A stretch of 64,000 nucleotides of DNA from Planctomycetota bacterium. Lineage in GTDB: Bacteria; Planctomycetota; UBA8742; UBA2392. A program made the position numbers and the translations under genes. The DNA is taken from contig JABARW010000019.1 in the NCBI GenBank assembly GCA_019186845.1, forward strand, positions 130,427 to 194,426. Direction: 5' to 3'. Shown one piece after another: positions 44,373 to 60,304 of the stretch; the first letter of the stretch is position 1; every line of letters begins with the position of its first letter. A model generated the notes under the pieces. The model saw only the letters and a program-made list of their open reading frames with translations, was not told where the DNA came from and searched no databases.

Positions 44373-44389
44373 AGCAGCCGCCGTGCCAA
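44373..44389 (-). promoter_or_regulatory. Candidate sigma-54 (-24/-12) promoter upstream of flgF
   Basis: The minus strand reads TGGCACG-GCGG-CTGC, one mismatch from the TGGCACG-N4-TTGC consensus. It lies ~30 nt upstream of the flgF ATG. Confidence 0.3.
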
Positions 44390-44462
44390 AGGCGCCTGCC
44401 CCATGAGAGCAAGCGGCGCACCGGGAAGTTCGGTGCGCCGCGACGGAAAAGTTTTCCGGGCG

Positions 44463-46337
44463 CTACTTCTTGCCGCTGGGAAGCTCGTAGGTCCTGCGGT
44501 CGTCGTCGGTAAAAACGAAGGGCTTCTGATTCACGCCCTCGAGGTCCGCGATCTGACCGACCTTGGCCAGGACATAGGCCGTGAGTTCATCGACGCTGAC
44601 GTCGCGGTCCTTGTTCGCATCCGCCTTGCCCGACAGGGCCTCCAGCACGAAGGCCGTGAACAGGCCGCCGCCGAGTTCCTCCATCTCAAGGGCGCGCTCG
44701 GCCGAAGGCAGGCCCACCTGCGCGCCCGTGGCGCTCAGCACCACAAGGCGTGTGCCGCGCTCGGCGCAAAGCTGGAAGATCGGGGCCAGCAGCGAGTGGG
44801 GCTTTTCGTTCTCCGCCCGCGCCGGCAGCTTGGCCAACAGCGCGTCCGTTACGGCGCAGCGCGAATCGCCTCGCGCCAGGAACGAACAATCCAGATAGAG
44901 CACCAGGGTGCGGGGACGCTCTTCCAGCGCGGCGTCCACCAGCTCGATCAGGGGCGTGATTTCGAGCGGCGTATCGGCCGCCGAGACCGGAGGCTGGGCC
45001 AAAGCCAGGCCGAGGCGGCCGTCCTGCGTCAATGTGCCGGTGCCGCAGAACATGAGGAAGAACTCATCGTTGCCGCGCGCCAGGGGCGTGACCTTGCCGA
45101 TGGCCTCGATCACGGCGGCGCGTGTGGCGGCAGCGCCCGTGAGGGTGGTGACGGCCCCCTCGGTCAGGGGGCGCCGCGTGGCCGTCAGGGCAAAGCGCGA
45201 AAGGGCCGTAGCGTCGGCTTCGGCGTAGCGCGTCATGGGCAGGCCGGGCCGCCCCTGGGAGTCCACGCCGACAATCACCCCGGCGCGGCGGCGCAAGTCG
45301 CCCAGGAAGTCGGGATCTTCCAGTTTGCGGGAAAGGTCCTGTGTGACAAAGCGCAGGGCCTGCTTGTGGGCCGCACACTCGCCGATGGGAATCATCTTCG
45401 AGCCGACTTTGACCCAGTTGCTCTCGCCCATGTAGCCGGGGGTGCTGAAGATGGAGAGCGCGTTGAAGCCGTGGTCAAAGTCGTCAAGGCTGCGCACCAA
45501 AGTTTCCTTGGGCGCCAGGCGCTTGCCCAGGGCGAGATTGCCCGTGGAGGTGGGGTAGAGCCTCAGGTCAATGTGAACGTTGACGTCAAAATCCTCGTCG
45601 GCGATCCACCATGTGAAAACAGGGCTCATCATCCACCAGATGAACATGTTCCAGGCGTAGGCGCCGTTGCTCTCGATGTAGCCGACATCATGGCGGCGCA
45701 CGGAAGGCTGCATGACGACATCCAGCCCCTGCGCCAGAGCGAGGCGACGCAGCTCTTCGGGCGTGGAATTGGGACGCGCGCCTTCGATGGGCTCGATGCG
45801 CTCGAACATGCGATACTTCACCAGCACGTCCAGCAGGCGTTTGTGGATGCCCGTGGGCCCGTTGAGTTGCTCGGGGTTGGGGGCCAGCACCCAGCGCTTG
45901 GTGTCCTCGACGTTGGTCTTTTCAGGATTGAGTTCCAGCTCCAGCACGCAGGGAGCCAGGCCAACGCGCAGGCCCAGGGGCTGCCAGCCCGCGGGCACTA
46001 TCTTCTCGTTCTTGACGTCCTCTTCGAGGTTGGGCGTCTCGATGGTCGAACAGGCCGAGCAGGCCAGCACCAAGGCTGCTAGCGCGCACAACGCGGCCAA
46101 CGTTGAACCGCGCCTGCCTTCAGCAGGCCGCCGAAAAGGTCGAAGTGCCGACTTTCCAGGAAGGCAAGGAGCGCAGTCCCCAGGCACGTAAACCCGGCGG
46201 CCTGCAGCAAGAGACTCCTTCGGCGGGGCACCCTGAACCCGATGCACCCCTGAAGCGGTCCGTTCTGACTGGGATGATTCCATGTATTTGCCACCTGACG
46301 CCCCCGATCCGGCACGGGGCGAAGTCCAATTCCTCAC
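44463..46337 (-). CDS. Lipoprotein with C-terminal caspase-like (peptidase C14/CHAT-like) domain, catalytic His apparently substituted
   Basis: Lipobox 'LAALVLACSACS'. The C-terminus reads 'EFFLMFCGTGTL...(~50 aa)...LVLYLDCSFLAR...GGGLFTAFVLEALSGKADANKDRDVSVDELTAYV', collinear with caspase HG...DxCxSG blocks but with GTG in place of GHG. The GTG at 46337 overlaps the upstream stop by 1 nt (TAGTG); the true start is uncertain. Confidence 0.5.
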   Translation of the reverse strand: MRNWTSPRAGSGASGGKYMESSQSERTASGVHRVQGAPPKESLAAGRRVYVPGDCAPCLPGKSALRPFRRPAEGRRGSTLAALCALAALVLACSACSTIETPNLEEDVKNEKIVPAGWQPLGLRVGLAPCVLELELNPEKTNVEDTKRWVLAPNPEQLNGPTGIHKRLLDVLVKYRMFERIEPIEGARPNSTPEELRRLALAQGLDVVMQPSVRRHDVGYIESNGAYAWNMFIWWMMSPVFTWWIADEDFDVNVHIDLRLYPTSTGNLALGKRLAPKETLVRSLDDFDHGFNALSIFSTPGYMGESNWVKVGSKMIPIGECAAHKQALRFVTQDLSRKLEDPDFLGDLRRRAGVIVGVDSQGRPGLPMTRYAEADATALSRFALTATRRPLTEGAVTTLTGAAATRAAVIEAIGKVTPLARGNDEFFLMFCGTGTLTQDGRLGLALAQPPVSAADTPLEITPLIELVDAALEERPRTLVLYLDCSFLARGDSRCAVTDALLAKLPARAENEKPHSLLAPIFQLCAERGTRLVVLSATGAQVGLPSAERALEMEELGGGLFTAFVLEALSGKADANKDRDVSVDELTAYVLAKVGQIADLEGVNQKPFVFTDDDRRTYELPSGKK

Positions 46338-49300
46338 TACCCGTCCTTCTTCGGCTGATACTCCTGCACGCAGCGGAAGCCGCGCCCCGCCGAACGATCC
46401 GCCAGTTGGGCCGAACTGTTCTTGGCGCGGCGGGCATAGCCCAGAAACAGATCGGGCCTCAGGCCGGTTTCAGCGCCTTTGACCACGGCGCGACCTGGGC
46501 TGAAGGCTCCGTCGGTCCATTCGGCGCAGTTGCAGCCCAGGTCGTAAACGCCCAGCGCGTTCTTGGCCCATTCGGCTGTGCCCACTTCACGCAGGCGCGG
46601 CACGCCAATGAGCGGGGCGTCTTCGCGCTTGCCGAAGGGGTAATCGCCCTGGTCGGAGGGCTGGTTGGCGTTGGGGGCGCCGGCCGCGATTTCCCATTCG
46701 TCGGGAGTGGGAAGGCGTTTCTTGGCCCAGCGGGCGTAGGCGCGTGCTTCGTACCAGCTCACGCCCGTGACGGGCAAGCTGGACTGGCTTGGGTCAAAGC
46801 CGCCCTTGACCCAGCCCTTGGGTCCCGGCTTGCCGGTGGTGTCCACGAAGTTCTTGACCAGGGGCAGTGCCTCTTCGTCCCAGAAGCGGGGCTGGCTGTA
46901 GCCCTCGTCAGCTACGAACTTGAGGAACTCGGCATTGGTCACGGGGACGCGGTCCATGAACAGGATTTTCTGCTGCTCCACCGTGCGCTGGCGGTTTTTG
47001 TCGGAGTCGCGCAGGGAACCCACGATGAAGCTTCCGCGCGGCAGAATCACCAGGCGATCAGAGAGGTCGGCCAGGGCCTTGCGCGCCGTGATTTCGTCGA
47101 GTCGGCCCTGGGCCTCGGCGCGGTGCGCCTTCTCCACGAGGTAGATCAGGGCGCGCTTGAGGTAGTCGACGGCCACGGCATCTTCGGTGCCGCGCGACTC
47201 CTCAAGCAGAACGACGCCCAGGCGCGAGCGGATGGCCGCGATGTAGCCCTCGGCGCGCTGGACGTAGTCGGGATCCTTGATCGTCTCGCGATAGAGCTTC
47301 TCATAGGCGCCGAGAATCGCTTCCACCTGGTCGCTGGTGGTGGCTGTTGCCTCGCGCGCGTGTATTTCCTCAAGGTTTGCAAACTGCCAGAGCTGGGCGA
47401 GCCGGGCCTTGTCGCGTGCGGTAGCATACTTGCTGGCCTCAGCTTCCTTCATGGCCTTGGCCACGTACTCGACGGCGATGGTCCAGCTTGAGGAGCCCAC
47501 GGCGTCTTCGGCCGTCTTGAGCAGGCGCTGGAAGCCCGAGAAGGCCGCCTCCTTCTCCGTGAAGTCGGCGCGCAGTTTCTTGACCTGGTCGCCGCGCTGG
47601 CCCGTGATTTCGGCGATACTGAGCATCAGGTCGCACACCTCGAACTTGGGTGGCTCCTGGGAAAGAGCCTGGCGGGCGTACTCCAGAGTTACGTCCGCCT
47701 TGGCACCCGCGGCCTCAGTTTTGAGTTTGGCCGCCTGCTCGTCGGAGAGGGGCACAGCCAGGGCCAAGTCTGAGAGGCGGATGACCTCGAGCACGGGGTT
47801 CTTGGCCGCCTCGAACTGGTCAGCCTTGACCAGCAGAGTCCGGGCGGCCTGCACACGGGCGCGCAGTTCAACGAGTTTGTCGCCCAGGTCCTTGAGCTGG
47901 CGGTTGCGCTCGCGGCCGGCCTCGTAGTCTGCCAGCCACTTTTCCACGCGCAGCTTTTCGTCGCCCGCTTCCTTGTTGCCTGGGTCGATGGCCAGCGCGG
48001 CCAGCAGGTCCTGCAGAGCGGCAGTGTATTGGCCACGGATGGTGTCATCGGCGGGGCGGTTGCGGTCCTGGGCCTCCTTCAGGGCGAGGTCGGCGGATTC
48101 GCGGCTGGCCCGCGCCTTCTTCAGCGCGTCGGCCAGGCTCTTCTGCCTCTCGGCTTCCTTTTCCTTCTGGGCGGCGTCGCGGGCGGCCTGCTCCTGGGCG
48201 GCCTGCACGCGGGCCTGTTCGAGGCTGGCGTTCTGCCGGCCCTCGCGGGCGCGCTCATCGGTGTCGTTGAGCTGCAGCACCGCTTCGAACTCGCTCTGCG
48301 CCTTGACGGCCTTATCCGAAGCCGCGGCAAATTGGCCAGCCTCGCGGGCCGTGGCCGCCTCGAGCAGCAACGTCTCACCGTTCTTGAGTTTGACCGGCAC
48401 GTCGGCAAGGCGGGCCTGACGCAGCACCACGACCGTCGCCACAATGCCGCCCATAAGGGCCAGCACGATGGCCGTGCCCGCGAAAACGGCCTTGCGATGC
48501 CGCGCCAGCCATTTGCGCACGAGCTGGCCCATAGTGTATTCGACGGCCGAGAGCGTCTTGCCTTCCTGCCACGAACGCAGGTTCTCGATCAGGTCCTGGG
48601 TACTCTGGATGCGGGCGCGCGGATCCTTGTTCAGGCAGCGCATGGCCAGCTGTTCGAGTTCCTGGGGGATGGCGCGGTCCTGGGCGCGCCTTGACGGCGG
48701 CTCGGGGTCGTACTCGCGAACCTGATCGAGGATTTCCTCGGAGTTCTTGCCCGTCCAGGGCAGTTTCAGGCAGAGGATCTCGTACAGGATCACGCCCAGC
48801 GAGAAGATATCGCTCTGCACGTCCAGCGTGTCGGTTTCGCCGCGGGCCTGCTCGGGCGACATGTAGGTGGGCGTGCCGAGGATGGCGCCGACCATGGTCG
48901 TGCCTGCGTGGGCGTCGCGACGGTCACTGGCCACGGTGCGTTCGGCTGTCTCCTCGCGCGTGCCCACAATCTTGGATACGCCCCAGTCCATGATCTGCAC
49001 TTCACCAAAACGGCCGACCATGATGTTGGCCGGCTTGAGGTCGCGGTGAATCACACCACGCGAGTGAGCGAAGGCCAGGCCTTCACACAGCTTGATGAAG
49101 ATCTCTACCAGGCGTGAAAGTGGGTAGCTGCGCGTCGCATTGGCATCGCCCTGGCGCAGCCGCTTGAGCACCGAGCTGAGTTCCTCACCCTCCACAAGCT
49201 TCATCGTGAAATAGAGGTTGCCGCGCCCATCCACGCCGATTTCGTGCACGGGGACGATGTTGGGGTGTTCGAGCTGGCCGGTGATCTGGGCCTCTTCGAG

Positions 49301-50914
49301 GAAGCGCTCCACGAGGTCCTTGCGGCCGAGCATTTCCTTGCGCAGCACCTTCAGAGCTACGCTGCGACGCAAGTCGTTATCTTCGACCTCTAGCACCTTG
49401 CCCATGCCGCCGCGTGCGATCTCACGGATCACGGTGTAGCGCTTGTAGGCGCCGCCGCCCTGCTTGAGACGTTTGACCACGCGCATGGCGGTGTCCTGGC
49501 CATCGGCGATCTTCACGCCTTCACCCAGGCCCATTTTCTCCCGCATCTGCGCCAGCGTGACCTGGGAGGCCGAAATCTGCTCGCCGGCCAGGTTCTGGTC
49601 GTCCGTAATGTTGCTCTCAACGCCCACTTTGTTGCGTTTACGTCCTCCCACTTCACCCGTGGCCAGAGCCGTGCTCATGCCGCTGGTGCGCGATCCTGTG
49701 CTGGGTTCGTTGGTAATCTCGCCGGTGATTTCGTCATCGATGCCGGCCTCTGAATCGTCGTAAACGGTCTTGAGGTCCGTGGGCGCGAGTGTGTCGCCGG
49801 TCAATGTCACGCCAAAATCGGCGTCCGAGTCATCCTTGACTTCCGTCACTGCGGGCGGCTTCGAAGGCGCCTTGGAGGCCGGCGAGGCGGACTTCTTGCC
49901 GGGTGCGCGCGTCTTGCCGAAGTCGGTCACCGTGGCCGACGGGTCGTCCTCGGGCGTTCCCTTGGCCACGTCCTTCTCGGAGTCGAACAGCGTGACTTCC
50001 TCAATCTTGGCGCTGGCCAGTACGGCATCGGAAAAGGCGGGCCGCGTGAGGTCTGCGGGCTGGCCGAAGTAGCCGTCGTCGGCATCGCGCATGACGTCGC
50101 GCACGGCGCTGTCATTGAGGGCCGATGAGGGCGTTGGCGGCGCCTTGGGCTCATCCTCGATCATGGGCAGGGGCTGGCGCGCGAGGTCGGGCATGGACTG
50201 GGTCTGTGGCTCCAGCTCGCTGGCCGACTCGTCAAAGTCCACCAGAGTGTCGCCGCTGCCGCCCAAGCGCTGGTCTTCGGCCATGGGGCTGACCTGCATG
50301 GGCTCGAGATTTCCCTCGGGCGCGAGGTCCGGCTGGGCGGCTCCCTGGCTGGCGGTTTCGAGGCCCAGGTTGGTTGAGCCCAGGTCGTCCCATTGGCTGG
50401 GCGTCCGCTCCACCAGCACGGGCGAGTTCGTAAGTTCCGGGATGGGCTCAGGCCTCGGTGTCACCGGCAGGGGCGAAAGGCCGGGGTTGGATCCCTCCTC
50501 AAACAGCGAATCGCCGCTCTGGCTCGTCGGCGGCGGCAGCTCCATTTCCAGGTGCGACTCTTCGCTCGACTTGCGCAGGCCTGACTTCTTCGGCGGCATA
50601 CCGTTGGGCAGCGGCTCCACAAGCCGCGGCACTTCGTCAAATCGCTCTTCCTCGGGCGCCAGCGCCGCGGGCTCGCCCGCGCGCTGCCTAAGATCGGCGA
50701 CAGTGTCGCTGGGCCTGGCGTTGAGCAACTGCATGGCGGTCGTGACGTCAATGTAGCCGCGCTCTACCGCCAGTTCATGGACGCCGAGTTCGGGGTCGAC
50801 GCGGCGGCGCACGGCCAGCTCCTGGCGAAGGGAAGCGGCCTGGGCGGAAGTCAGCAGCCGGCGCTCCTGGGCGCGTGCGAGAAACTGAACATCAAGCGGG
50901 TCGGCGTTGCCCAT
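46337..50914 (-). CDS. Transmembrane Ser/Thr protein kinase with C-terminal extracytoplasmic formylglycine-generating-enzyme (FGE-sulfatase) domain
   Basis: Kinase 'ARGGMGKVLEVED...ALKVL...HRDLKPANIMV...DWGVSK...GTPTYMSPEQ', a TM 'AVFAGTAIVLALMGGIVATVVVL', a ~500-aa coiled-coil region, then FGE 'GVSWYEARAYARWAKKRLPTPDEWEIAAG...GVYDLGCNCAEWTDG...GRGFRCV'. Length 1525 aa. Confidence 0.85.
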   Translation of the reverse strand: MGNADPLDVQFLARAQERRLLTSAQAASLRQELAVRRRVDPELGVHELAVERGYIDVTTAMQLLNARPSDTVADLRQRAGEPAALAPEEERFDEVPRLVEPLPNGMPPKKSGLRKSSEESHLEMELPPPTSQSGDSLFEEGSNPGLSPLPVTPRPEPIPELTNSPVLVERTPSQWDDLGSTNLGLETASQGAAQPDLAPEGNLEPMQVSPMAEDQRLGGSGDTLVDFDESASELEPQTQSMPDLARQPLPMIEDEPKAPPTPSSALNDSAVRDVMRDADDGYFGQPADLTRPAFSDAVLASAKIEEVTLFDSEKDVAKGTPEDDPSATVTDFGKTRAPGKKSASPASKAPSKPPAVTEVKDDSDADFGVTLTGDTLAPTDLKTVYDDSEAGIDDEITGEITNEPSTGSRTSGMSTALATGEVGGRKRNKVGVESNITDDQNLAGEQISASQVTLAQMREKMGLGEGVKIADGQDTAMRVVKRLKQGGGAYKRYTVIREIARGGMGKVLEVEDNDLRRSVALKVLRKEMLGRKDLVERFLEEAQITGQLEHPNIVPVHEIGVDGRGNLYFTMKLVEGEELSSVLKRLRQGDANATRSYPLSRLVEIFIKLCEGLAFAHSRGVIHRDLKPANIMVGRFGEVQIMDWGVSKIVGTREETAERTVASDRRDAHAGTTMVGAILGTPTYMSPEQARGETDTLDVQSDIFSLGVILYEILCLKLPWTGKNSEEILDQVREYDPEPPSRRAQDRAIPQELEQLAMRCLNKDPRARIQSTQDLIENLRSWQEGKTLSAVEYTMGQLVRKWLARHRKAVFAGTAIVLALMGGIVATVVVLRQARLADVPVKLKNGETLLLEAATAREAGQFAAASDKAVKAQSEFEAVLQLNDTDERAREGRQNASLEQARVQAAQEQAARDAAQKEKEAERQKSLADALKKARASRESADLALKEAQDRNRPADDTIRGQYTAALQDLLAALAIDPGNKEAGDEKLRVEKWLADYEAGRERNRQLKDLGDKLVELRARVQAARTLLVKADQFEAAKNPVLEVIRLSDLALAVPLSDEQAAKLKTEAAGAKADVTLEYARQALSQEPPKFEVCDLMLSIAEITGQRGDQVKKLRADFTEKEAAFSGFQRLLKTAEDAVGSSSWTIAVEYVAKAMKEAEASKYATARDKARLAQLWQFANLEEIHAREATATTSDQVEAILGAYEKLYRETIKDPDYVQRAEGYIAAIRSRLGVVLLEESRGTEDAVAVDYLKRALIYLVEKAHRAEAQGRLDEITARKALADLSDRLVILPRGSFIVGSLRDSDKNRQRTVEQQKILFMDRVPVTNAEFLKFVADEGYSQPRFWDEEALPLVKNFVDTTGKPGPKGWVKGGFDPSQSSLPVTGVSWYEARAYARWAKKRLPTPDEWEIAAGAPNANQPSDQGDYPFGKREDAPLIGVPRLREVGTAEWAKNALGVYDLGCNCAEWTDGAFSPGRAVVKGAETGLRPDLFLGYARRAKNSSAQLADRSAGRGFRCVQEYQPKKDG

Positions 50915-50917
50915 GCC

Positions 50918-53900
50918 TTACTCGAACCTCACGATACGGACCTGGTTGAGCTTGCGCGTCTTGCCGGCGCCGAGGTCATACTCGCCGCCGATCGCGTAAA
51001 AGCGTTTGCTGGCCGGGTCGAACATGCCGCAAGCGCCTAGGCCATGTTGGGCACCGCCAATGGTCAGCGACTGCCATGTGGTGCCCGCCGGCGGGGTGAT
51101 GGCCGGGTTGCAGAAGACCAGGGCCTGGTTGTCGAACTGGGCTGGCGGCGCCGTCAGGAAGCGCTCGCCATCGGGGTCAAAGGCGCCGGCGCCGGGGAAG
51201 ATGCCCTTGGGCGCCGAGGGAGCGTGGGTGGCCAGAGCCGTCCAGGTGCCGGCGCTGACACTCGTAAAGACCCACTCGTAAAGCTGCAGTGTGCCGCTCT
51301 GCGCGGCCTGGGTGGCGCCGCCCAGCACATACATGCGGGACTTGTCGTCGCTGATGCCGCAGAACGCCCCGGCGCGGCCGTCAATGCTGCCCGTCACCGT
51401 GGGCGTGACCCAGGTGGGGGCGCCGGCGAGATTCAGGTAGTGGATGCTGCCCGTGTAGGGGGAGGCTGTATTGTCGTAGCCGCCAAACACAATCATGCGG
51501 TCGTTGCTTTCATCAAAGCAGGCTGCATGTCCCATGCGAGGCGTGGGGGGCGTGCCCGTGGTTGAGGCCTGCGCCCAGGTGCGTGTCGTCGGATTGAACT
51601 GGTACACCGAATTCTGAAGCAGTGACTGGCCTGTCGCCGCCTTGTTGCCGCCGAACAGCACGATGCGGTTGGTGGCACCATTGAACACCAGCGAAGCGCC
51701 CTGCAACTGGCCGGGCAGAGTAGCCGCGCCGGAGGACGGGTTGACGACCTCCCAGAGCACGCCGGCGCCAAACGTATCAAAGCGAACGCGCCACAGCTCA
51801 TCGCTCACGCCGTGGTCGCAGATACCGCCGTAAACGTAACCCCAGTCGAGGGACTCAATCCAGACGCAGGCGGCGTTGCGCCGGCCCTGGGGCACGATGC
51901 CCGAGGGGCTGGGCTGCAGCCAGTTCAGCGTGTTCGTGGTGGATTGCCAGAGATCGCCAAAGTAGCCCACCAGGTTGCGGCCGCCGAACATCACCAGCTG
52001 GGTTCCGGCGACAATCAGCGCGGCATCGCCGCGGGCGTCGGGTGTGCGTTCCAGGGCGATAGAGGGAAGGCCCCAGGTGGGCGGAGCGACATTGAAGTCC
52101 AGGATGCGCAACTCGTTGGTGAAGAGGCCGCCGGGCGAGCGCCCGCCGAACACCAGCAGTCGGTTGTTCGCCGCGTCAAAGGCCGCGCTGGCGTCATCGA
52201 GACCGCCGGCGGGGGCCGTTCCCAGCGTGGTGACTGCGTCCCAGTTCCAGGGGCTGACCGCAGTGTTGAGCTGCCACACCACGGTCGCAGTAGTGCCGGA
52301 CGTGTAGGTTCCCACGAGGCAATGCTTGGCCGAGGCGGAGTTATAGAAATAAGCGCACTTCTCGGTTTGCGGCGCGCCCGGCGTGCCCGTCACGCCGGTC
52401 TGGCGCGAAAGCCAGGCAGGCGAGGCGGGAGTGGTGATATCCAGGCGGAAGATCGTATCGCCCACGCAGATCCGGATTTCGTTGCTGGGCTCGTCGTGGA
52501 AGCAGAGGTACCGGTAGGTCTGGCTCAGCTTGGGCGTGTTGCCGCCGCTGCCGGAGGGCGAAAGGGCGGTCCAGGCGGGGGTGGTGGCCAGCGTATCAAG
52601 ATAGTAGACGCCCACGTTGCTGGTGCTGTTGCCCAAGAAGGCGAACAGCAGCTTGCGCGGGTTGTCAAACACCATGCTGATGGTGTTGGTGGGCAGGGCT
52701 GCGTTGATGCGCGGCAAGGAGGTGAAAGTGCCGCCCACGGGGTTGTAGATGAAGCAGAGGTCGTCGTGTTTGCCCGTGGAGTGGCTCGTTTCGCTGAGAC
52801 CGCCCATGACGAAGACGCGGTTGTTGGAGGAATCGTACGCCACGGAAGGCTCGCTGCGCGCCATGGAGATGTCGCCGCGGAAGGTGCTCACGTTGCCCAT
52901 GCCGTCGAGGTTGATGGTCGCGGTGTTGAAGACAGAGGGCACCACCGTACTGGTGGCGCGGATGATCACCGTGGCGTCGTTCTGGCCCGTGGTCGGGGGC
53001 GTGTAGCGGCCAGAGCTGTCAATGGTACCGCCGCCGCTGACCACTGCCCAGTTCACCGTTTGCGCGGCGCCGCTGGGCAGCACGTTGGCCGTGAAGATCA
53101 GGACGCGGCCCTGCACAAAGGTGCGACCGGTGTTGGGCGAGATGGTCAGGCTGGTGGGCAGGGTGCCCGTGCTGGGGTTGACGGTCACGACCGCCGTGGC
53201 TGTCACGGTGCCGGCGACGGAACTCGTCGCGGTGACCGTGACGTTCTGCGCGGCCCCGGCGCTGGAGGGAGGCGTGTAAACGCCTGAGGCGCTGTCGATG
53301 CTGCCGAACACCGGATTGATGGTCCAGATGACCGACTGATTGGCGTTGGCGGGTACGAAGTTGACGGCGTCAAAGTCTACGCCGGCGCCGCCCGCCGTAA
53401 CGATGGCCGTCGAGGGTGAGACCTGGAAGCTGGTGGGTGGCGGGGCGACCAGGTTGATCTGGTAGTCGTCCGTCACGCTGGAGACAACCTGGCTGCGCGC
53501 CCGCACGAACACTTGGCTGGGAGAGGGCAGGGCCGAGGGCGACGTATACAGGCCCGAGGAGTTCACAAAGCCCACCGTCGAATTGCCGGACCCCTGGTTC
53601 ACTCCATTCCAGTCGATGGTCCAGTAAACCTGTTGGGGAGCGTCCGGCGGGTTGACCGTTGCCATGAGACTGAGGGTCTGACCCAGGGTGACCTGCGAGG
53701 GACCCTGGCTGGACCCCACGGCCTCCGTCACCAGCAGCGAGACGGGGCTGGGCTTGAGGTTGACCACCGCCGAGCCGAAAACCGTGCCGTCAACGCTGGT
53801 GGCGCGCACGTTGATCTGCTTGACCACAGGCAGCGATGTAGGCGCCGTGTAAAGTCCGCCCTGGGTGACCGTGCCATTGGCAGAACCGCCCACCACGGAC

Positions 53901-55945
53901 CAGTTGACCTGCTGCGGGGCCCCCGCGGGAGCCACCGAGGCCGTGAACTGCTGGGTGAGGCCAGCCACGACATCGACGGGCGTGGGAGTCACGTTCACGC
54001 TGGTGGGGGCATCGCCCCAATACAGCCGCCAGGTGGCCGTGACCGCGCCGGTAACGGTGCTTGTGGCGCGCACCGTGCAGAAATTGGGGCTGCTCAAGGC
54101 CAGCGTGGCCGGGGCCGTATACAGCGCTGTTTGCGGGCCCTGCAGAGGACTCGAAACGGGCACGATACTGCCGTTGCCGCCGCCTTCCACGATATCCCAG
54201 GTTACGGTGTGGTCGGCTGCCGCCGCCGGCAGGATGGTGGCCGTAAAATTGCGCGTCTGCGAGACATTCACCGTAACGCGGCCGTTGTCCTCCACCAACG
54301 TGATACCCGCGGGCGTGGCCGCTGCCGGGTTATTGATGACGGAAAAGCTGCCCGAAAAGAACGTGGGCCCCGGCAACGCCGCCGCAGGAAAGCCCTGGGG
54401 GGCGTCCGTGGGCGTAATCTCCCAGATGAGGTCCGCAGCGTTGGTCAAGGGCAGGGCGATGTTGGAGTTCCAGATCAGGATGTTGTCCTCTCCTGACAGG
54501 CCGGAGTTCATCTGGGCCAGGTTGCCGACCACGAAATCCGCGTTACTCAACACCACGCTGTTGGCGCCTCCGTTCCAGGTCGCGGTAATTGCGCAAGAGA
54601 CTTCGTCACTGCTGCTGTCTTTGAGCTGAATGCGAACGGAGATGTTGCCGGAGTTCTGGTAAACCTCGAAGTCACTGACTTCCGGCGCTTCGTTGTCCGC
54701 AAAACTGAACGTGCCGCTGTAAACCGTTGTGCCGTAGACGGTGGGTGAAGACCCAACCTCCACGGGCGTCAGGCGCAGCTCCACGCTCTTGGCGCCTTGC
54801 GCCGCCAGGTCCGCAAGACCATTCCACTCCAGCGAGTAAAGTCGCGGATTGGGCGAGCAGACAAAGGGGCCCGCCGGTTGCGTCGTGGCCTGGCCCGTGA
54901 GCCGCGCGGGCAGCCAGTTGGTGCCGTCAACGGTGTACTCGACCGCGACCTCGGCGCTGTCACTGCCGCCGTCGCTCAACGTGAACTGCAGGGGCACTGT
55001 TCCCACGAAAGAGTCGCCGGCTATGCTGGAAACCAGGTTCAGCTCCGGCGGCCCGTTCTGGACGTTGTTGAGCGTGACGGGGCCCACGAAAACCGGATCG
55101 CCCACCGTGAACTCCGTCCAACCTGAGGGCCGGTCCACGGGAATCAGCGCGAGATAGACGTCCGAACCCACAAAGCCCGGCAGGGCCACGCTCGAATTCC
55201 AGATGAACTGGCCTGCGGCGCCCAGGGGCGTTGTGAGCAAAGCCGTGGGCGGAGTGCCTACGTAATCGCCCGATGAGAGTTCCGTAAAGGTCTGACCCTG
55301 ATCCAGCGTGAAGGCGACGACCATGCCCGCTACGTCCGCGCTTGAGTCACGAATGTTGAACGTGACCAGCACCAGGCTGCCCGTGACCAGCACATCCGGC
55401 GACTGCGGCGAAGTCGTCTGGTTCACGACGGGGGCGTCGTTGCCCGCCACCAGCCCGCCCAGAGATGCAATGGGCCCGGGGCCCGCGCCGTCGTTGGCCA
55501 CAATGGCAATGTGCAGGCCCGTCTCCAGCTCCGTCGTCAGCAGGTCAATCTCGTAGTCCCACTTGAACACCTTGGCCGAACCGCTGGGACCGGAATTCAG
55601 GAACGTGACCGGGTCGCCGCCCACGCCTTGGGTGCAGGGAAAGTAATTGATGCCGTCGCGCGACCAGGTCACCTGCACACTGCACAGGTCGGAGTTGGCG
55701 TCAATCAGCGTATAGTTGATGCTCGCAGGCGCATCTTCGCGCGTCAGGGAGTTGATTACCACCACAGGCGGAGAGTTGGTCGAGGGAGCGGTCTTGCCAT
55801 CCTTGTCCTTCTTGTTGCCCGCGAAGGCAAAGATCCCGCCGCCGGAACCACCGGCCAGGGCCAGCAAGCCCGGACCACAGCCCGCAAGCAGCACCGCCAT
55901 CAGCCCAAACGCGAAACTCAGCAAACACGATCTTGTCGTGGGCAT
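50918..55945 (-). CDS. Giant surface lipoprotein: tandem Ig-like (Big/Cadherin-like) domains plus C-terminal Kelch/galactose-oxidase-like beta-propellers
   Basis: Lipobox 'LMAVLLAGCG'. Repeated ~90-aa Thr/Val/Ser-rich beta-sandwich units. The C-terminal third has Kelch-like 'RVFVMGGL', 'QLVMFGGRN', 'RIVLFGGN' and 'MIVFGGYDN'. Length 1675 aa; the stop is 3 nt before the kinase start. Confidence 0.75.
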   Translation of the reverse strand: MPTTRSCLLSFAFGLMAVLLAGCGPGLLALAGGSGGGIFAFAGNKKDKDGKTAPSTNSPPVVVINSLTREDAPASINYTLIDANSDLCSVQVTWSRDGINYFPCTQGVGGDPVTFLNSGPSGSAKVFKWDYEIDLLTTELETGLHIAIVANDGAGPGPIASLGGLVAGNDAPVVNQTTSPQSPDVLVTGSLVLVTFNIRDSSADVAGMVVAFTLDQGQTFTELSSGDYVGTPPTALLTTPLGAAGQFIWNSSVALPGFVGSDVYLALIPVDRPSGWTEFTVGDPVFVGPVTLNNVQNGPPELNLVSSIAGDSFVGTVPLQFTLSDGGSDSAEVAVEYTVDGTNWLPARLTGQATTQPAGPFVCSPNPRLYSLEWNGLADLAAQGAKSVELRLTPVEVGSSPTVYGTTVYSGTFSFADNEAPEVSDFEVYQNSGNISVRIQLKDSSSDEVSCAITATWNGGANSVVLSNADFVVGNLAQMNSGLSGEDNILIWNSNIALPLTNAADLIWEITPTDAPQGFPAAALPGPTFFSGSFSVINNPAAATPAGITLVEDNGRVTVNVSQTRNFTATILPAAAADHTVTWDIVEGGGNGSIVPVSSPLQGPQTALYTAPATLALSSPNFCTVRATSTVTGAVTATWRLYWGDAPTSVNVTPTPVDVVAGLTQQFTASVAPAGAPQQVNWSVVGGSANGTVTQGGLYTAPTSLPVVKQINVRATSVDGTVFGSAVVNLKPSPVSLLVTEAVGSSQGPSQVTLGQTLSLMATVNPPDAPQQVYWTIDWNGVNQGSGNSTVGFVNSSGLYTSPSALPSPSQVFVRARSQVVSSVTDDYQINLVAPPPTSFQVSPSTAIVTAGGAGVDFDAVNFVPANANQSVIWTINPVFGSIDSASGVYTPPSSAGAAQNVTVTATSSVAGTVTATAVVTVNPSTGTLPTSLTISPNTGRTFVQGRVLIFTANVLPSGAAQTVNWAVVSGGGTIDSSGRYTPPTTGQNDATVIIRATSTVVPSVFNTATINLDGMGNVSTFRGDISMARSEPSVAYDSSNNRVFVMGGLSETSHSTGKHDDLCFIYNPVGGTFTSLPRINAALPTNTISMVFDNPRKLLFAFLGNSTSNVGVYYLDTLATTPAWTALSPSGSGGNTPKLSQTYRYLCFHDEPSNEIRICVGDTIFRLDITTPASPAWLSRQTGVTGTPGAPQTEKCAYFYNSASAKHCLVGTYTSGTTATVVWQLNTAVSPWNWDAVTTLGTAPAGGLDDASAAFDAANNRLLVFGGRSPGGLFTNELRILDFNVAPPTWGLPSIALERTPDARGDAALIVAGTQLVMFGGRNLVGYFGDLWQSTTNTLNWLQPSPSGIVPQGRRNAACVWIESLDWGYVYGGICDHGVSDELWRVRFDTFGAGVLWEVVNPSSGAATLPGQLQGASLVFNGATNRIVLFGGNKAATGQSLLQNSVYQFNPTTRTWAQASTTGTPPTPRMGHAACFDESNDRMIVFGGYDNTASPYTGSIHYLNLAGAPTWVTPTVTGSIDGRAGAFCGISDDKSRMYVLGGATQAAQSGTLQLYEWVFTSVSAGTWTALATHAPSAPKGIFPGAGAFDPDGERFLTAPPAQFDNQALVFCNPAITPPAGTTWQSLTIGGAQHGLGACGMFDPASKRFYAIGGEYDLGAGKTRKLNQVRIVRFE

Positions 55946-56127
55946 GGAACTGCACTCCCTGCACAGGGGATGTCCGTCACCAATAAGGGGAGAACCAATG
56001 CTACAAGGTCACAGTGCCATGGCAACCCAAACTATTACACAAAGCAAGGCGTCATGACACAGATGTGAATCTCTATCCCTCATCTCTTCCAGTCAGGAGA
56101 CTGCGCGCGATGCCTGCAAAAACGCTA

Positions 56128-57054
56128 TCACCCCCAGAACCGGTAGAAGTTGTGCCACTGCAAGGGAAACTCACGCAGTTGCTGCTCCAGGATTAACGCG
56201 TATTCCCCGGCCCATTGCCGCAAGTTGGACTCCCGTTCCCGCCTCGACCCGAACACGAAACTCTTTGGTCCCACGGCCATCACCCGATAGCGCTGGTGGC
56301 CCAATCGATTACAGAACACAAACACCACCGGCGCACCGGTGTTCGCCGCCACCACATAAGGACCGCTGGGAAACGCCGCCTCTGAGCCCAGGAATGGAGC
56401 CTTCACCGTGCCGCTGCCCACCACACGATCTCCGTGAATGGCCACAATCTCTCCGCGCTTGAGCGCGGCCACCATTTCGATGCTGGCGGCCAGGGGGTCG
56501 GAGGAGTCAATGATGTTGAAGGGCTGGCCCTGGGCCACTTTTTCGAGGTGCTGCCGTGCGCGCTGGCCCTCGTTGCGAAACCACACCAGATTGATGGGCA
56601 CTTGGGGCGCAGTAACGCCCAGGCTGCCCAGGCCGTGGGCCGCCAGTTCCCAGTTTCCCATGTGCGCCGAGATCAGAACCAGTCCTTTGCCCCCCTTGAG
56701 CGCCTCCGTGATCGACTCCGAGTTCACCCGCTCGAAGTGAAAGCTGCCCAGGGCACCCGTGAAGGCGTAGGCGCGATCCAACAGCACGCGCCCAAAGCTC
56801 AGGAAGTGGCGGTAGTTCAGCCACAGCAGGCGAAAGGAGGAGGCCGTGGGATACAGCCGTCGCAGGTAGTCGCGGCTGGCGGCCCCGTGCTTCCAGGCAA
56901 CACAGATGTAGTAGAAGACCACCGGGTAAAGCAGCGAGTAGGCAAACACCGGGCCGAAAACGCGGAACAGCCAGAACATCAGGCGTATGCCCAGGCCGCT
57001 GCGGGTGCGACCGTCCCAAGGCCGCGGAGTATTCAACGGCGCTTCACCGCTCAT
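56128..57054 (-). CDS. Lipid A biosynthesis-type (LpxL/HtrB family) lysophospholipid/late acyltransferase
   Basis: 'LVLISAHMGNWELAA' (HX4E acyltransferase motif) and an N-terminal membrane anchor. Length 308 aa. Its start overlaps the upstream stop (ATGA). Confidence 0.65.
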   Translation of the reverse strand: MSGEAPLNTPRPWDGRTRSGLGIRLMFWLFRVFGPVFAYSLLYPVVFYYICVAWKHGAASRDYLRRLYPTASSFRLLWLNYRHFLSFGRVLLDRAYAFTGALGSFHFERVNSESITEALKGGKGLVLISAHMGNWELAAHGLGSLGVTAPQVPINLVWFRNEGQRARQHLEKVAQGQPFNIIDSSDPLAASIEMVAALKRGEIVAIHGDRVVGSGTVKAPFLGSEAAFPSGPYVVAANTGAPVVFVFCNRLGHQRYRVMAVGPKSFVFGSRRERESNLRQWAGEYALILEQQLREFPLQWHNFYRFWG

Positions 57055-58469
57055 AGCGCCGGGGCCTCAACGGTCTTGACCCTGGCCTCCTGGGCGTCGA
57101 GTGCGGCATGGATATCGGCGCTTTGCAGACCGTGGGCTGGTGTGAGTTCCGGCGCGGAATCGACGGTGGTGCGACGCGGCGCCGCCGCTTCCTGCGCCTG
57201 CTTGCGCCTCCGCAAAGCGCGGATGCCGTAAAGCGTCGAAAGCCCCATCACGAAAGCCATGACCAGTCCGATGATCGAACTGCCCAGAACCCAGGCGCCA
57301 AGGCTTGCCTTGAGGTGGGGCCAGAGAATGGCCCAGTCCAGCGTACGCGGGAAATAACTGTGGTTGCCCAGCAGGAACTTGCCCAGCAGAACCGAGGCCA
57401 CTGCAATCACTGCGGTCAGGGGTCCGAAGCTTACGTTGGTCGCCGCCACGGTGGCCACGCGGTTGAGGTGCATGCGCGTGCCGGCGTAAAGCGCAAACAG
57501 CCACTGCACGCCAATCAGGGGCGTGCAGCCGATGAACGCGCCAATGCCCACGGCCATGCCCAGCTCGCCCGGCGAGTTCTTCTCGTGTACCAGGTAGGCC
57601 AGCAACTGCTTCATGCGCGCCAGCGGCCCGCCGCGCAGTTGCGCCTTCTCGGGCAGCGCGGCCAGGGCGCGCAGGCGCCGCGCCCCGTTCTTGAGCGTGG
57701 CGCCGATGCTGCCAGCCCAGAGTGGATCCTTGCGCGCCACCAGGCGCCGGTGAGGCAAGGGGACCAGCAGGTGACGGAAGTTGAGGTAGTTGTAGAGAAA
57801 GAAGTAGCGCACGTTGTCCCACACCGGATTGAAGTGGGATACACGCTCGGATTTCGGCGGATAGTGGACTCGCACCGGAACCGTGACGATGGGGCATCCG
57901 CCCCATGCCGCGCGCACCAGCAGCTCGCATTCAAATGTGAAGCGGCGGGAAAAGCAGAACAGGCGGGTAACGTGGCGCAGAGGATAGATGCGAAATCCGG
58001 ATTGTGTGTCGCCGGCGTCCACACCTGTGGCCAGCCTCATCCAGAAATTGCTGAACTGGCGCCCGAACGTCGAGATGGAGGGTACGTGCACGCCCGTCAT
58101 GTCCCGCACGCCAATCACTATGGCGTCTGGGCTGGCGTGGCTGGCCGCGATGAGCTTGGGCGCCTCCTCTGGGTAATGCTGGGCGTCGCTGTCCATCGTC
58201 AGGGCGTGGGTGTAACCGAGCTCGAGGGCCTTCGCAAAACCGCTGCGCAAGGCCACGCCCTTGCCGCGATTGCGCCGGTGGCGCACCAGCACGATGGGAA
58301 GGTCCTTGAGGAGTTCGGCCGTGCCGTCACTGCAGCCGTCATCGACGACGATGACAGTCTGGGCCAGGGCCAGCGCGCGCCGCACGACATCCGTCACCGT
58401 GGTGCGGTTGTTGTAGGTGGGTATGACAATGCAGTACCCGCTCGCGGCAGGAATGGATTTGCCGTTCAA
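57051..58469 (-). CDS. Family 2 glycosyltransferase fused to a C-terminal DUF2062-like membrane domain
   Basis: 'CIVIPTYNNRTTVTDVV...VVDDGCSDGT...TMDSDAQHYPEE' is the GT-A fold with a DxD motif, followed by a multi-TM C-terminus. The start is uncertain; a TTG at ~58469 is proposed, and the ORF is open to 58640. Confidence 0.6.
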   Translation of the reverse strand: MNGKSIPAASGYCIVIPTYNNRTTVTDVVRRALALAQTVIVVDDGCSDGTAELLKDLPIVLVRHRRNRGKGVALRSGFAKALELGYTHALTMDSDAQHYPEEAPKLIAASHASPDAIVIGVRDMTGVHVPSISTFGRQFSNFWMRLATGVDAGDTQSGFRIYPLRHVTRLFCFSRRFTFECELLVRAAWGGCPIVTVPVRVHYPPKSERVSHFNPVWDNVRYFFLYNYLNFRHLLVPLPHRRLVARKDPLWAGSIGATLKNGARRLRALAALPEKAQLRGGPLARMKQLLAYLVHEKNSPGELGMAVGIGAFIGCTPLIGVQWLFALYAGTRMHLNRVATVAATNVSFGPLTAVIAVASVLLGKFLLGNHSYFPRTLDWAILWPHLKASLGAWVLGSSIIGLVMAFVMGLSTLYGIRALRRRKQAQEAAAPRRTTVDSAPELTPAHGLQSADIHAALDAQEARVKTVEAPAL

Positions 58470-58710
58470 GCTGCGCCTTTCAGTAGCCCCACTGCCGAAT
58501 CTGTAAGTTTCCGGTGACAAGGTGCCTGTGTCAAGGCTTTGACCGGCGGCCCTTGTTGGACCAGGCTGCTCTCTTTTCGCCCCCCTGGTTATCGCCCGGC
58601 AGTGTTGGGTTCCAAGCCGTCGCCATCTGCCGACAACCACGCCTGCCGCGCCCCTTGCACCCTGAGGCGTTGGCCCTGCGCAAGGTGCGGGCGCTTGCTA
58701 CCATCGAGCC

Positions 58711-59289
58711 ATGAGCCTGATTCAACGAAATGTGGTGCTGGCCTCGGGCTCGCCCTATCGCAAGCAGTTGCTTGAAGATGCCGGCGTCGCCTTTCGGGTG
58801 GTGGTCAGCCATGTCGATGAAGACCTGCATCCGCACGACGAGCCTCACGCCTATGTGCGCTCCCTGGCCTCGCGCAAGGCCATGGCCGTGGTGCCCTCCT
58901 GCCCCGACGCTCTCGTGATTGCCGCCGACACCATCTGCACCTGGCGCGGGCGTATCATCAACAAACCGGCCGATGAAGCCGACGCCCGCCGCATGATCGC
59001 CGAGGCCTGCGATGCCAGACTTCAGCGCGTGATCACCGGTGTGTGCGTGGTGGATTCCCGCGACATGACCACCCTGAGCTTTGCCGAATGCAGCATCGTT
59101 GAAATGAAGCCCGCCAGTGCCGAACAAATCGACGCCTACGTGAGGAGCGGCGAACCTATGGGCAAGTGCGGGGCCCTGGCCATTGAGTCCAGCGGCAGCT
59201 TTGTCGCGCGCTATGAGGGCAGCTATGCCAACATCATGGGTCTGCCGGTGGAGCGCCTGCTGCCGGTGCTTCTGAAACTGGACGCGTAG
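58711..59289 (+). CDS. maf: Maf-like nucleoside triphosphate pyrophosphatase (septum formation protein Maf)
   Basis: 'VVLASGSPYRKQLLEDAGVAFRVVVSHVDED...IAADTI...' Length 192 aa. Confidence 0.8.
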   Translation: MSLIQRNVVLASGSPYRKQLLEDAGVAFRVVVSHVDEDLHPHDEPHAYVRSLASRKAMAVVPSCPDALVIAADTICTWRGRIINKPADEADARRMIAEACDARLQRVITGVCVVDSRDMTTLSFAECSIVEMKPASAEQIDAYVRSGEPMGKCGALAIESSGSFVARYEGSYANIMGLPVERLLPVLLKLDA

Positions 59290-60304
59290 ACGGGCCCGTC
59301 AGCGACACGCCGTGCCAGGTCAGCTCGCGCAAGATGGCATCCTTCAGGTCTACCGCCGGTTCATAGCCCAGTTCGCGCCGGGCCTTCTCGCTCGAGTAAT
59401 GCTGTCCGTACTCCATGTGGTAGTAACTGGTGAGCGACAGCGCGCCCGGCGACGAGCGCAGCAGCCAGGCCCACCACTCCGCGAAAATCGCCCCTATGTA
59501 AGCGCCCAGCCGCGGCAGGATCATGGGGCGGTGAAGGCCTGCCAGGGTGCAGACTTTTTCAGCCAGCTCGCGCAGTGTCGTGTTCCAGCCGCCCAGAATG
59601 TAGCGCTCGCCGGGTCGCCCCCTCTGCAGGGCCAGCACGTGGCCCCGGGCCACGTCGCGCGTGTCCACGAAGTTCATGGTGGCGTCAACCATGAATGGCG
59701 TCAGCCCCTGATAGAACACGCACACGGCCGAGAGCTTGGCGTTGCGGCTGCCCTCGCCCACCAGGCCCGTGGGGTTCACAATCACCGTCGGCGGTCCCTG
59801 GGGGTTGTCACCGGTGGTCACTTCGAGGACGGCCTTCTCCATGGCCGCCTTGACTGCGTAGTAATTGCCCCCCGACGTGCGGCGTGCGTCATAGGGCAGG
59901 CTTTCATCGGCCAGCTTGCCCCGGGGCGCCAGTCCGATGCAGGAAAGGCTGCTGGTGAACACGGCGCGCTCGATGCCGGCCTCCCTGGCCAGCACGAAAT
60001 GCCGCCGCAACTGCGGAATCCACTGCGCCAGCATGCCCTTCTGCCGCAGGTGCAGGCCGCTCCAGGGAAAGGGCGCCGCTGCATGCACAAAGAAGCGGCA
60101 TTCCTTCAGGGCCGCCGAAAGCGCGGCATCCTCATTCATGTCGCCATGGATAATTTCCCCGCCGCGGCTCTCGATTTCGGCGAGGTTGCGATGGCCCTTC
60201 GAGCGCGCCAGACAGCGCAGATTGTACCCGGCGTCGAGCAGCGCCAGGCCCACGCGCGAGCCCACAGTTCCCGCCCCTCCCAGCAAGAGCACGCGATCAG
60301 ACAT
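59234..60304 (-). CDS. NAD-dependent epimerase/dehydratase (SDR family)
   Basis: ATG at 60304 gives 'MSDRVLLLGGAGTVGSRVGLALLDAGY', a Rossmann GxxGxxG. Downstream are 'YYAVKAAMEK' (YxxxK) and a Pro/Ala-rich C-terminal tail. Confidence 0.75.
   Translation of the reverse strand: MSDRVLLLGGAGTVGSRVGLALLDAGYNLRCLARSKGHRNLAEIESRGGEIIHGDMNEDAALSAALKECRFFVHAAAPFPWSGLHLRQKGMLAQWIPQLRRHFVLAREAGIERAVFTSSLSCIGLAPRGKLADESLPYDARRTSGGNYYAVKAAMEKAVLEVTTGDNPQGPPTVIVNPTGLVGEGSRNAKLSAVCVFYQGLTPFMVDATMNFVDTRDVARGHVLALQRGRPGERYILGGWNTTLRELAEKVCTLAGLHRPMILPRLGAYIGAIFAEWWAWLLRSSPGALSLTSYYHMEYGQHYSSEKARRELGYEPAVDLKDAILRELTWHGVSLTGPSTRPVSEAPAAGAPPADP

Follow-up and report, generated by a model that had tools for sequence, protein, structure and literature searches.

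A co-inherited three-gene module of Planctomycetota that combines a propeller lipoprotein, a transmembrane kinase::FGE protein and a predicted pseudo-caspase lipoprotein

Three large genes follow one another on the minus strand of a 64,000-nt stretch of DNA from a Planctomycetota bacterium (contig JABARW010000019.1; the whole stretch is termed the window, and the coordinates of the locus refer to it), immediately upstream of a flagellar gene cluster. The question that this locus raises is whether the three products act together and, if so, whether they serve the flagellum or form a system of their own. The genes are named in order of transcription: G1 (55945-50918) encodes a giant propeller lipoprotein of 1675 amino acids (aa), G2 (50914-46337) a 1525-aa transmembrane serine/threonine kinase that ends in a domain of the formylglycine-generating enzyme type (FGE), and G3 (longest frame 46337-44463) a lipoprotein with a caspase-like domain. 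The three open reading frames (ORFs) and the 3-nt gap between G1 and G2, which reads TAA-GGC-ATG across the junction, can be read directly in the sequence, as an earlier, first-pass annotation of this DNA had stated. The evidence presented here indicates that the trio is inherited as a unit and is found repeatedly across the phylum; that it constitutes a receptor-kinase device spanning the envelope, with a propeller sensor that can be exchanged, is a reading for which our confidence and our doubt are evenly balanced.

Conservation of the locus was assessed in public assemblies and in 27 loci among GTDB species representatives. Wherever the upstream DNA suffices (L007-L029; approximately 20 species-level genomes), G1, G2 and G3 keep one order and orientation. 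Of 20 loci, 13 have a G1-G2 gap of at most 8 nt, nine of them a gap of exactly 3 nt, and the distance between G2 and G3 ranges from -17 to +156 nt. The pairwise distance matrices of the three genes correlate (r = 0.68-0.92), and neighbour-joining trees of the kinase, of the N-terminal domain of G3 (N-domain) and of the Kelch region are congruent. The genomes most closely related to that of the window, those of isolates PLA1 (L010/L023) and SJ383 (L011/L024), contain two trios each. Their second copies group as sisters in the kinase, N-domain and Kelch trees, in which the other sub-clades also coincide, and the paralogous trios diverged before the PLA1 and SJ383 lineages split. Since the second copies are sisters in every gene, the trio must have been duplicated as a unit; it is inherited and duplicated as one. 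The proposal that the three genes share a function is thereby strengthened by synteny in all loci with enough flanking DNA, by congruent trees and by duplication as a unit, and the survey of related genomes suggested alongside that proposal recovered the same gene order in approximately 20 species-level genomes. Identity among relatives is graded along the module, from 72-77% in the kinase through 57-62% in the FGE domain, 57-60% in the G3 N-domain and 41-46% in the pseudo-caspase domain to 29-31% in the Kelch region. The window genome may itself carry a second trio copy beyond the window.

Remote relatives, in which the G3-like protein shares 22-26% identity with G3, separate the constant from the variable parts of this arrangement. 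A kinase::FGE gene lies directly 5' of the G3-like gene in seven of eight such contexts, and six of the eight have a Kelch, NHL or FG-GAP giant no more than two genes away. The propeller gene takes several positions: an FG-GAP/CBM96 giant and a 333-aa ORF without a Pfam match precede the kinase-FGE and G3-like genes in L033, the order in L040 is NHL, kinase-FGE, G3-like, NHL, two NHL giants follow the kinase-FGE and G3-like genes in L039, and a double-kinase-FGE gene, a G3-like gene and an FG-GAP giant make up the set in L042. In L037 a kinase-TPR-FGE gene, a G3-like gene and a cyclase gene are accompanied by a Kelch giant on the opposite strand. The remaining contexts comprise a kinase-FGE and a G3-like gene followed by a 408-aa protein without a Pfam match (L041), a kinase-FGE and a G3-like gene (L043), and a G3-like gene with an NHL giant and no kinase (P0059 context). 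Because the kinase::FGE and pseudo-caspase pair is kept in seven of eight contexts and the giant in six, the constant core consists of the kinase::FGE protein and the pseudo-caspase lipoprotein, with the propeller giant as a frequent but interchangeable companion (Kelch, NHL or FG-GAP). The initial view of the Kelch/Ig protein as part of a fixed trio does not survive this comparison, as NHL or FG-GAP giants take the place of Kelch in remote relatives.

Some of these loci carry further genes with a signalling character. Class III nucleotidyl cyclase genes adjoin the module in two lineages (L007, 14035-15243; L037, 11607-12773), and five FHA-domain genes lie alongside it in L040 (12384-17586); both kinds of gene are possible downstream signalling partners. 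The G2 counterpart of L042 (3-3992) bears two tandem Pkinase domains before its FGE domain.

G2 (46337-50914, minus strand) encodes a bitopic Hanks-type kinase consisting of a largely disordered N-terminus (residues 1-490), the kinase (491-790), a transmembrane helix (807-834), a stalk (835-1285) and the FGE domain (1286-1525), and the architecture first assigned to it, a Hanks kinase with one transmembrane helix and an FGE-sulfatase domain, was recovered in full. Pfam places Pkinase on residues 493-773 (155 bits) and FGE-sulfatase (PF03781) on residues 1287-1516 (101.6 bits against a cutoff of 23.3), with no match in the first 70 aa. The kinase motifs VALK, HRDLKPAN, DWG and SPE are intact, and the kinase is active-looking, that is, probably catalytically competent. 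Across 19 orthologs the kinase N-lobe is the most conserved part of G2 (94% identity), followed by the FGE domain (approximately 60%) and the stalk (20-38%). The stalk, of approximately 450 aa, is helical, rich in Ala, Leu, Glu, Arg and Lys, and has one weak TPR match; its alignment is almost free of gaps across the 19 orthologs, its length thus being kept and its sequence not. A homolog search with the stalk and FGE segment returned two matches only, its candidate list having been swamped by coiled-coil words.

The catalytic Cys pair of human FGE, which we take to be Cys336/Cys341, lies near the C-terminus of that enzyme. The FGE domain of G2 contains Cys only at positions 1461, 1463 and 1515, and none within residues 1470-1510, the stretch aligned with the catalytic loop. 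An active FGE was therefore rejected for want of Cys at the catalytic positions, and the domain is predicted to be non-catalytic. Its best matches in the PDB are EgtB, OvsA, SUMF2, FGE and PorK/GldK. The FGE fold has been treated in the literature as a C-type-lectin ligand sensor (PMC10907252, PMC7159879), and this, together with the missing catalytic Cys, supports the suggestion made at first annotation that the domain acts as a binding module. PorK/GldK of the type IX secretion system are likewise FGE-fold proteins of the envelope with a structural, non-enzymatic role and lipoprotein partners; unlike them, G2 is a transmembrane kinase rather than a lipoprotein, no genes of that secretion system are present, and GldK (NCBIfam TIGR03525) scores 36.4 bits on G2 (cutoff 350). 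Periplasmic FGE domains are common on Ser/Thr kinases of Planctomycetota (PMC11032199), again as anticipated, and the single-pass kinases with periplasmic SUMF1/FGE domains described in that phylum (PMC11032199; serine/threonine kinase atlas, 10.1101/2025.01.12.632604) have an architecture identical to that of G2. Those surveys (PMC11032199; 10.1101/2025.01.12.632604) cover the kinases alone, and a partnership with a pseudo-caspase or a propeller protein is unreported in them.

The C-terminal domain of G3 (residues 266-545, 45305-44466, minus strand) was characterised by an AlphaFold model built from 39 sequences (pLDDT 89, pTM 0.83) and by Foldseek comparisons, which matched the domain model to metacaspase 9 (8a53, E 7.5e-9), GSU0716, MALT1 and Yca1. 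The sequence of G3 itself gives no Pfam hit at E <= 0.01, and so none to Peptidase_C14 (PF00656), and reaches 33.7 bits with the NCBIfam model caspase_w_EACC1 (cutoff 140). The Peptidase_C14 threshold is, however, exceeded by remote full-length relatives (36-49 bits against 21.4), and homology of G3 to this family therefore holds by transitivity. In the model, the domain adopts a true metacaspase/caspase-hemoglobinase fold. Thus, of the caspase-like C-terminus originally described, the fold stands, while a Pfam match and both catalytic residues are missing; correspondingly, the profile hidden Markov model (HMM) searches proposed at the time place Kelch, Big_2, Pkinase and FGE-sulfatase above threshold in the module, but return no match of Peptidase_C14 on G3.

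The state of the catalytic site was tallied over 39 close and 116 remote full-length members (155 in total) aligned to the family HMM. A His and Cys dyad is present in none of the 155; true His-Cys enzymes do occur among the caspase-only matches to that profile. The catalytic-His position, in a G-x-G motif that a Yca1 profile alignment places as 'fsGvG' on 'YSGHG', corresponds to Thr354 in G3 (codon 45039-45041, minus strand); members of the close clade have V, T, I, L, A or M there, and remote relatives mostly Tyr. The catalytic-Cys position, in the motif L-D-C-S-F, corresponds to Ser406 (codon 44883-44885, minus strand), with Ser or Ala in each of the 39 close members; remote members have S, G or A. 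The resulting residue pairs are VS, TS and LS in the close clade and YS, YG, YA and LS in remote relatives. The acidic S1 pocket, whose residues are defined by Asp95 and Asp211 of TbMC2 (PMC6426788), is by comparison well kept, with D296 in 152 of 155 members and D404 in 145 of 155, Asp404 preceding Ser406. On these alignments the C-terminal domain of G3 is a pseudo-caspase that has lost the dyad and kept the acidic S1 pocket. An active protease was rejected on the absence of the dyad from all 155 members, and the protease-like partner envisaged in the first-pass annotation is better described as a pseudo-enzyme.

A further conserved element is an EF-hand-like loop, DANKDRDVSVDE (G3 residues 494-505, 44586-44621, minus strand), which lies between two helices of the model (480-492 and 503-521). 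Across the family, the Asp at loop position 1 is kept in 132 of 155 members and the Glu at position 12 in 136 of 155, with D or N at positions 3 and 5 and V, I or L at position 8; position 6 is Arg in the window clade, as against Gly in the consensus D-x-[DN]-x-[DN]-G-x-[ILV]-x-x-x-E. Pfam EF-hand matches are weak and occur in relatives only.

These findings bear on the idea that the module is enzymatic, its FGE-like domain chemically modifying G1 or G3 and G3 acting as a non-canonical protease, for instance via Ser406. The FGE fold does support several oxidative chemistries (EgtB, OvsA, FGE), and G3 does have a Ser at the catalytic-Cys position next to an intact S1 pocket; nevertheless, the FGE Cys pair is missing, as is a DinB-type metal domain like that of EgtB, and remote members often have Gly or Ala at the Cys-equivalent position and a hydrophobic residue at the His-equivalent one, leaving the family with no conserved nucleophile and base pair. 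We regard such chemistry as decidedly improbable.

The nearest precedents for the G3 domain are the pseudo-orthocaspases (Klemencic et al. 2019, PMC6426788), which have the same bacterial p20 fold with His and Cys replaced, retain the same two acidic pocket Asp and in some cases carry EF-hand motifs. The G3 family falls within their definition, as its dyad is substituted and both S1-pocket Asp are retained. Cyanobacteria are known to have Tyr/Ser forms that keep the acidic pocket (PMC6426788), and remote members of the G3 family share this Tyr/Ser signature; the window clade differs in having Val or Thr together with Ser. Unlike the cyanobacterial proteins, the G3 family is planctomycetal, has no link to photosynthesis, is fused to a lipobox-bearing N-domain and is tied to a kinase::FGE gene. 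A second precedent concerns the pairing of domains: fusions of caspase and FGE-sulfatase domains rank fifth in frequency among prokaryotic metacaspase architectures (Asplund-Samuelsson et al. 2012, PMC3501461), and this same pairing argues that the two domains cooperate. Here, in contrast to those fusions (PMC3501461), the domains reside in separate adjacent proteins, the FGE domain is carried by a transmembrane kinase and the caspase is predicted to be dead; the fusions nonetheless provide a domain-level link between the FGE domain of G2 and the pseudo-caspase of G3.

Related pairings are also known from conflict systems and from targets of diversity-generating retroelements (DGRs), in which the same non-catalytic FGE fold serves as a binding module in FGS/C-type-lectin sensors (PMC7159879, PMC10907252), and the FGS sensors of conflict systems often stand alongside caspase-type domains and sometimes alongside inactive enzymes (PMC7159879, PMC10907252). 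The trio might accordingly be an extracytoplasmic conflict or defence module, in which the FGE domain detects phages or predators in the manner of DGR and STAND systems, with the dead caspase as a decoy or adaptor and the kinase as the trigger of a defensive response. In keeping with this, FGE(FGS) and caspase domains co-occur in predicted conflict systems for which inactive enzyme decoys have been proposed (PMC7159879, PMC10907252), FGE-type sensors occur in defence STANDs (PMC13581612), and the kinase of G2 resembles the PD-T4-6 and MAD6 kinases. PADLOC, however, gave no hits for G1 or G3 and matched G2 through its generic kinase domain only, and the idea that the trio belongs to a known defence system was rejected; the loci seen lack an NTPase, effector-associated domains (EADs), a DGR reverse transcriptase and a template repeat. 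The FGE domain is conserved (57-62%) rather than hypervariable, the module is extracytoplasmic, its inheritance is vertical and congruent rather than island-like, and its neighbours are housekeeping genes. A role in defence is thus improbable. Diversification by a DGR was rejected separately: the window contains no second occurrence of the sequence that encodes the C-terminal part of the FGE domain, the gene lists include no reverse transcriptase, and the FGE domain is conserved to the above extent.

G1 (50918-55945, minus strand) was characterised by Pfam matches, internal repeats and its lipobox, and is a predicted lipoprotein. The lipobox, LLAGC with Cys22, is followed by a Gly-rich tether, and [LA]GCGP is kept in four orthologs including paralogous copies. 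After the tether come approximately four repeats of approximately 120 aa (residues ~70-530), approximately five Big_2-type immunoglobulin (Ig)-like repeats (~540-1015) and Kelch blades (~1016-1675). The best Pfam match is the Kelch family PF24681 (179 bits), Kelch_1-6 also lying above their cutoffs, and Big_2 scores 29.5-40.5 bits against a cutoff of 22.8; Pfam finds nothing in the first 540 aa, where the ~120-aa repeats are known from internal comparison. The description of G1 as an Ig-like/Kelch lipoprotein is therefore upheld by supra-threshold Kelch and Big_2 matches and by a lipobox conserved in orthologs. No part of the module evolves faster than the Kelch region (29-31% identity).

G3 also carries a predicted lipobox, A-C-S with Cys17, the Cys being invariant in 39 of 39 close members, and a lipobox-like motif is present in 96 of 116 remote ones. 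The N-domain that follows (residues 18-262, 46049-45315, minus strand), modelled alone with a pLDDT of 87, belongs to no Pfam family in any G3 family member, remote relatives included. Its fold neighbours are the periplasmic envelope lipoproteins FlgT, CsgG, PelC, HpaA, GNA1162, LpoB-C, TolB-N and DUF330. With the CsgG/PelC/LpoB/FlgT/TolB-N class it shares an alpha/beta fold and a lipoprotein context, but the identity is 6-15% and there is no sequence-family match; a W..[IV]ADE motif and fusion to a pseudo-caspase occur in the G3 family alone. This motif belongs to a Trp-rich hydrophobic segment, AWNMFIWWMMSPVFTWWIADEDF (G3 residues ~148-172, 45585-45659, minus strand), which is the hallmark and most conserved motif of the family, with W164 in 134 of 155 members and E169 in 146 of 155. 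The segment has a low pLDDT and sits between two long beta-strands of the model, and may insert into a membrane.

Approximately 40 close homologs of G3 were found, all from uncultured Planctomycetota, and a homolog search with a mixed close and remote alignment added no cultured organisms. An exhaustive profile search gave 96 clusters at E <= 1e-30, many of them full-length at 500-560 aa. Two remote proteins, P0097 and P0185, combine the N-domain and pseudo-caspase with an N-terminal extension of approximately 350-400 aa that replaces the simple lipoprotein signal and bears zinc-ribbon (DZR) motifs.

The N-domain gives rise to the most serious alternative, in which the trio is a machine for assembling or anchoring a surface protein: an oligomer of the N-domain beneath the outer membrane would export or anchor the propeller giant, the pseudo-caspase would hold this cargo and the kinase would monitor or regulate assembly. 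CsgG, PelC and FlgT are ring-forming outer-membrane lipoproteins, the conserved Trp-rich segment lies between two long strands just where CsgG has its membrane hairpins, and the type of the giant propeller partner, which is secreted or lipidated in every case, varies as that of a cargo might. Nevertheless, the TM-scores of the fold matches are modest (0.3-0.6), CsgG and PelC yield no sequence-family hit and TM-scores of 0.3-0.5, LpoB-C and TolB-N match equally well without forming rings, and conservation is highest in the kinase, as would be expected if signalling were the principal output. We consider an assembly machine unlikely.

The interpretation of the trio as an envelope-spanning receptor accounts for these features as follows. 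A site of action in the cell envelope is supported by the fact that all three proteins have extracytoplasmic parts, given the lipoboxes of G1 and G3 and the transmembrane helix of G2. Located in the periplasm or at the outer membrane, the propeller protein would be the exchangeable sensor that binds a ligand or mediates adhesion. The pseudo-caspase would serve as a non-cleaving adaptor, possibly Ca2+-dependent, that grips a basic peptide segment of the propeller protein or of the FGE domain, and the stalk of G2 would span the periplasm and so bring the FGE domain to the complex of G1 and G3. Changes in binding would then be relayed across the inner membrane to the highly conserved kinase, which would phosphorylate cytoplasmic targets. 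The module would be transcribed from its own AT-rich leader and would be functionally independent of the adjacent flagellar genes.

Several observations weigh against such a receptor. One remote relative (the P0059 context) has no kinase, and two others (L041 and L043) have no visible propeller gene. None of ten longer profile hits fuses the G3 architecture to a kinase or FGE domain. The match of the modelled N-domain to envelope lipoproteins is at the level of fold only (TM-scores 0.3-0.6), and the spacer of 150-236 nt between G2 and G3 in the window could hold an internal promoter. Finally, all carriers are uncultured metagenome-assembled genomes (MAGs). The literature searched contains no description of the trio or of the lipoprotein family that joins the N-domain to a pseudo-caspase, in agreement with the first-pass annotation, which knew of no such system.

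The possibility of independent transcription directs attention to the junction of G2 and G3. At 46337 the sequence TAGTG makes the stop of G2 overlap a candidate GTG start of G3 by 1 nt, and from this overlap a 236-nt spacer (46101-46336, minus strand), open in the G3 frame, extends to the TTG start at 46100, a candidate start with which the public gene call begins its 545-aa G3 (44463-46100, minus strand). Use of the GTG as the functional start of G3 in the window genome is unlikely, because the invariant lipobox Cys lies 95 codons 3' of it, the public start is the TTG, most relatives start approximately 20 codons ahead of the Cys and the N-terminal extension of the window is not conserved. 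In L010, a 95%-identical relative, the same site reads TAATG and the frame is open despite a net length difference of 57 nt. The spacer differs from that of L010 by 26.8%, with 14/11/12 differences at the three codon positions and a syn:nonsyn ratio of 4:22, whereas the flanks (the last 200 codons of G2 and the first 200 of mature G3) differ by 8.7%, with 6/2/44 differences, 44 of 52 falling at third positions. Since divergence is spread evenly over the codon positions of the spacer, unlike those of the flanks, the spacer does not appear to be under coding constraint. The overlap that had been taken as evidence of translational coupling of G2 and G3 is thus present, but the GTG as a working start, and with it coupling at this site, is doubtful given this non-coding-like divergence; in other clades G3 does overlap the stop of G2, by 8 or 17 nt. 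The first ~60 nt of the spacer, which include AGGTGG-N7-ATG at 46283, are better conserved than the remainder, and the spacer may contain a regulatory element or encode a short leader peptide.

Upstream, G1 is preceded by a 182-nt leader (55946-56127, minus strand) with a GC content of 51.6% against 64.6% in the window, in line with the AT-rich leader reported previously. It holds a sigma-70-like element, TTGCCA-16-TAGCAT, at 56025-55998 on the minus strand, which matches at 9 of 12 positions where 0.1 such elements are expected by chance. Rfam gave nothing above threshold in the leader, the G2-G3 spacer or the rest of the locus. Downstream, a GC-rich 11-bp hairpin without a U-tract (44413-44441, minus strand) follows directly 3' of the G3 stop, within a 76-nt stretch of -36.6 kcal/mol (z = -3.0); a consensus scan downstream of G3 called no canonical intrinsic terminator and did not score this hairpin as one. 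Beyond it lies the sigma-54-type -24/-12 motif TGGCACGGCGGCTGCT (TGGCAC-N5-CTGCT; 44373-44388, minus strand), an exact match 32-47 nt 5' of the called flgF start (44341), so that the sigma-54-like promoter annotated between module and flgF is confirmed at the level of the motif; it marks the boundary of the module. A second exact copy of TGGCAC-N5-CTGCT at 40950-40935 (minus strand) stands directly 5' of the called flgI start, which suggests that both motifs are RpoN-dependent flagellar promoters within the cluster.

The public gene calls used here derive from contigs identical to the window in several Planctomycetes MAG assemblies (e.g. GCA_013328935.1) and show lipopolysaccharide-type genes upstream of the module and flgF-G-A-H-I-(J)-N-K-L downstream, the end of G3 lying 121 nt from flgF. 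Such proximity invites the explanation that the three genes encode flagellar accessory proteins, for example of an outer disk resembling the H/T-ring, co-regulated with the flgF-flgL cluster, and FlgT is indeed among the fold neighbours of the N-domain. That match is, however, a general one of fold, shared with TolB-N and LpoB, and in more distant relatives (42-52% identity to G3) the downstream neighbours are TPR proteins, Obg, ribosomal proteins and cyclases, none of them flagellar. Because flgF has its own sigma-54-type promoter, a hairpin follows G3 and relatives exist without flagellar neighbours, the flagellar link is lineage-specific and incidental: the adjacency to the flagellar cluster noted at the outset is real in the window but is not kept in relatives. 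Synteny thus largely refutes a flagellar function, which we regard as extremely improbable.

Directly upstream of the module (56128-59300, minus strand) lie genes for a lipid A acyltransferase, a GT2/DUF2062 protein, Maf and a sugar epimerase, and the module is thus placed between envelope-biogenesis and flagellar genes. At the far end of the flagellar cluster, a 949-aa protein with Flagellin_N and Flagellin_C domains (34060-36909, minus strand) is unusually long for FlgL or flagellin.

Beyond the correction of an appealing but wrong flagellar link, the analysis defines a new family that can be annotated, of at least 155 sequence clusters, by its lipobox, a non-Pfam N-domain with W..[IV]ADE, a dead dyad, an acidic pocket and an EF-hand-like loop, in which the caspase fold would have been recruited as a non-catalytic extracytoplasmic adaptor. 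Hundreds of Ser/Thr kinases of Planctomycetota bear periplasmic FGE domains, and the module ties these, as well as pseudo-caspases, to defined partners. It also offers a testable hypothesis, namely that the kinase::FGE protein and the pseudo-caspase lipoprotein form a constant transducer and the swappable propeller the sensor. Kelch, NHL and FG-GAP propellers are used by eukaryotic surface receptors such as attractin, the teneurins and integrin alpha chains. A wider and still rather doubtful extension of the hypothesis is that Planctomycetota carry a phylum-wide, unrecognised class of tripartite envelope receptors, in which swappable propeller sensors would act through a C-type-lectin-fold domain and a Ca2+-binding dead caspase adaptor on a Hanks kinase. 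If true, this would give bacterial pseudo-caspases, and many kinase::FGE fusions, their first concrete cellular role, and would constitute a bacterial parallel to eukaryote-style adhesion-receptor signalling.

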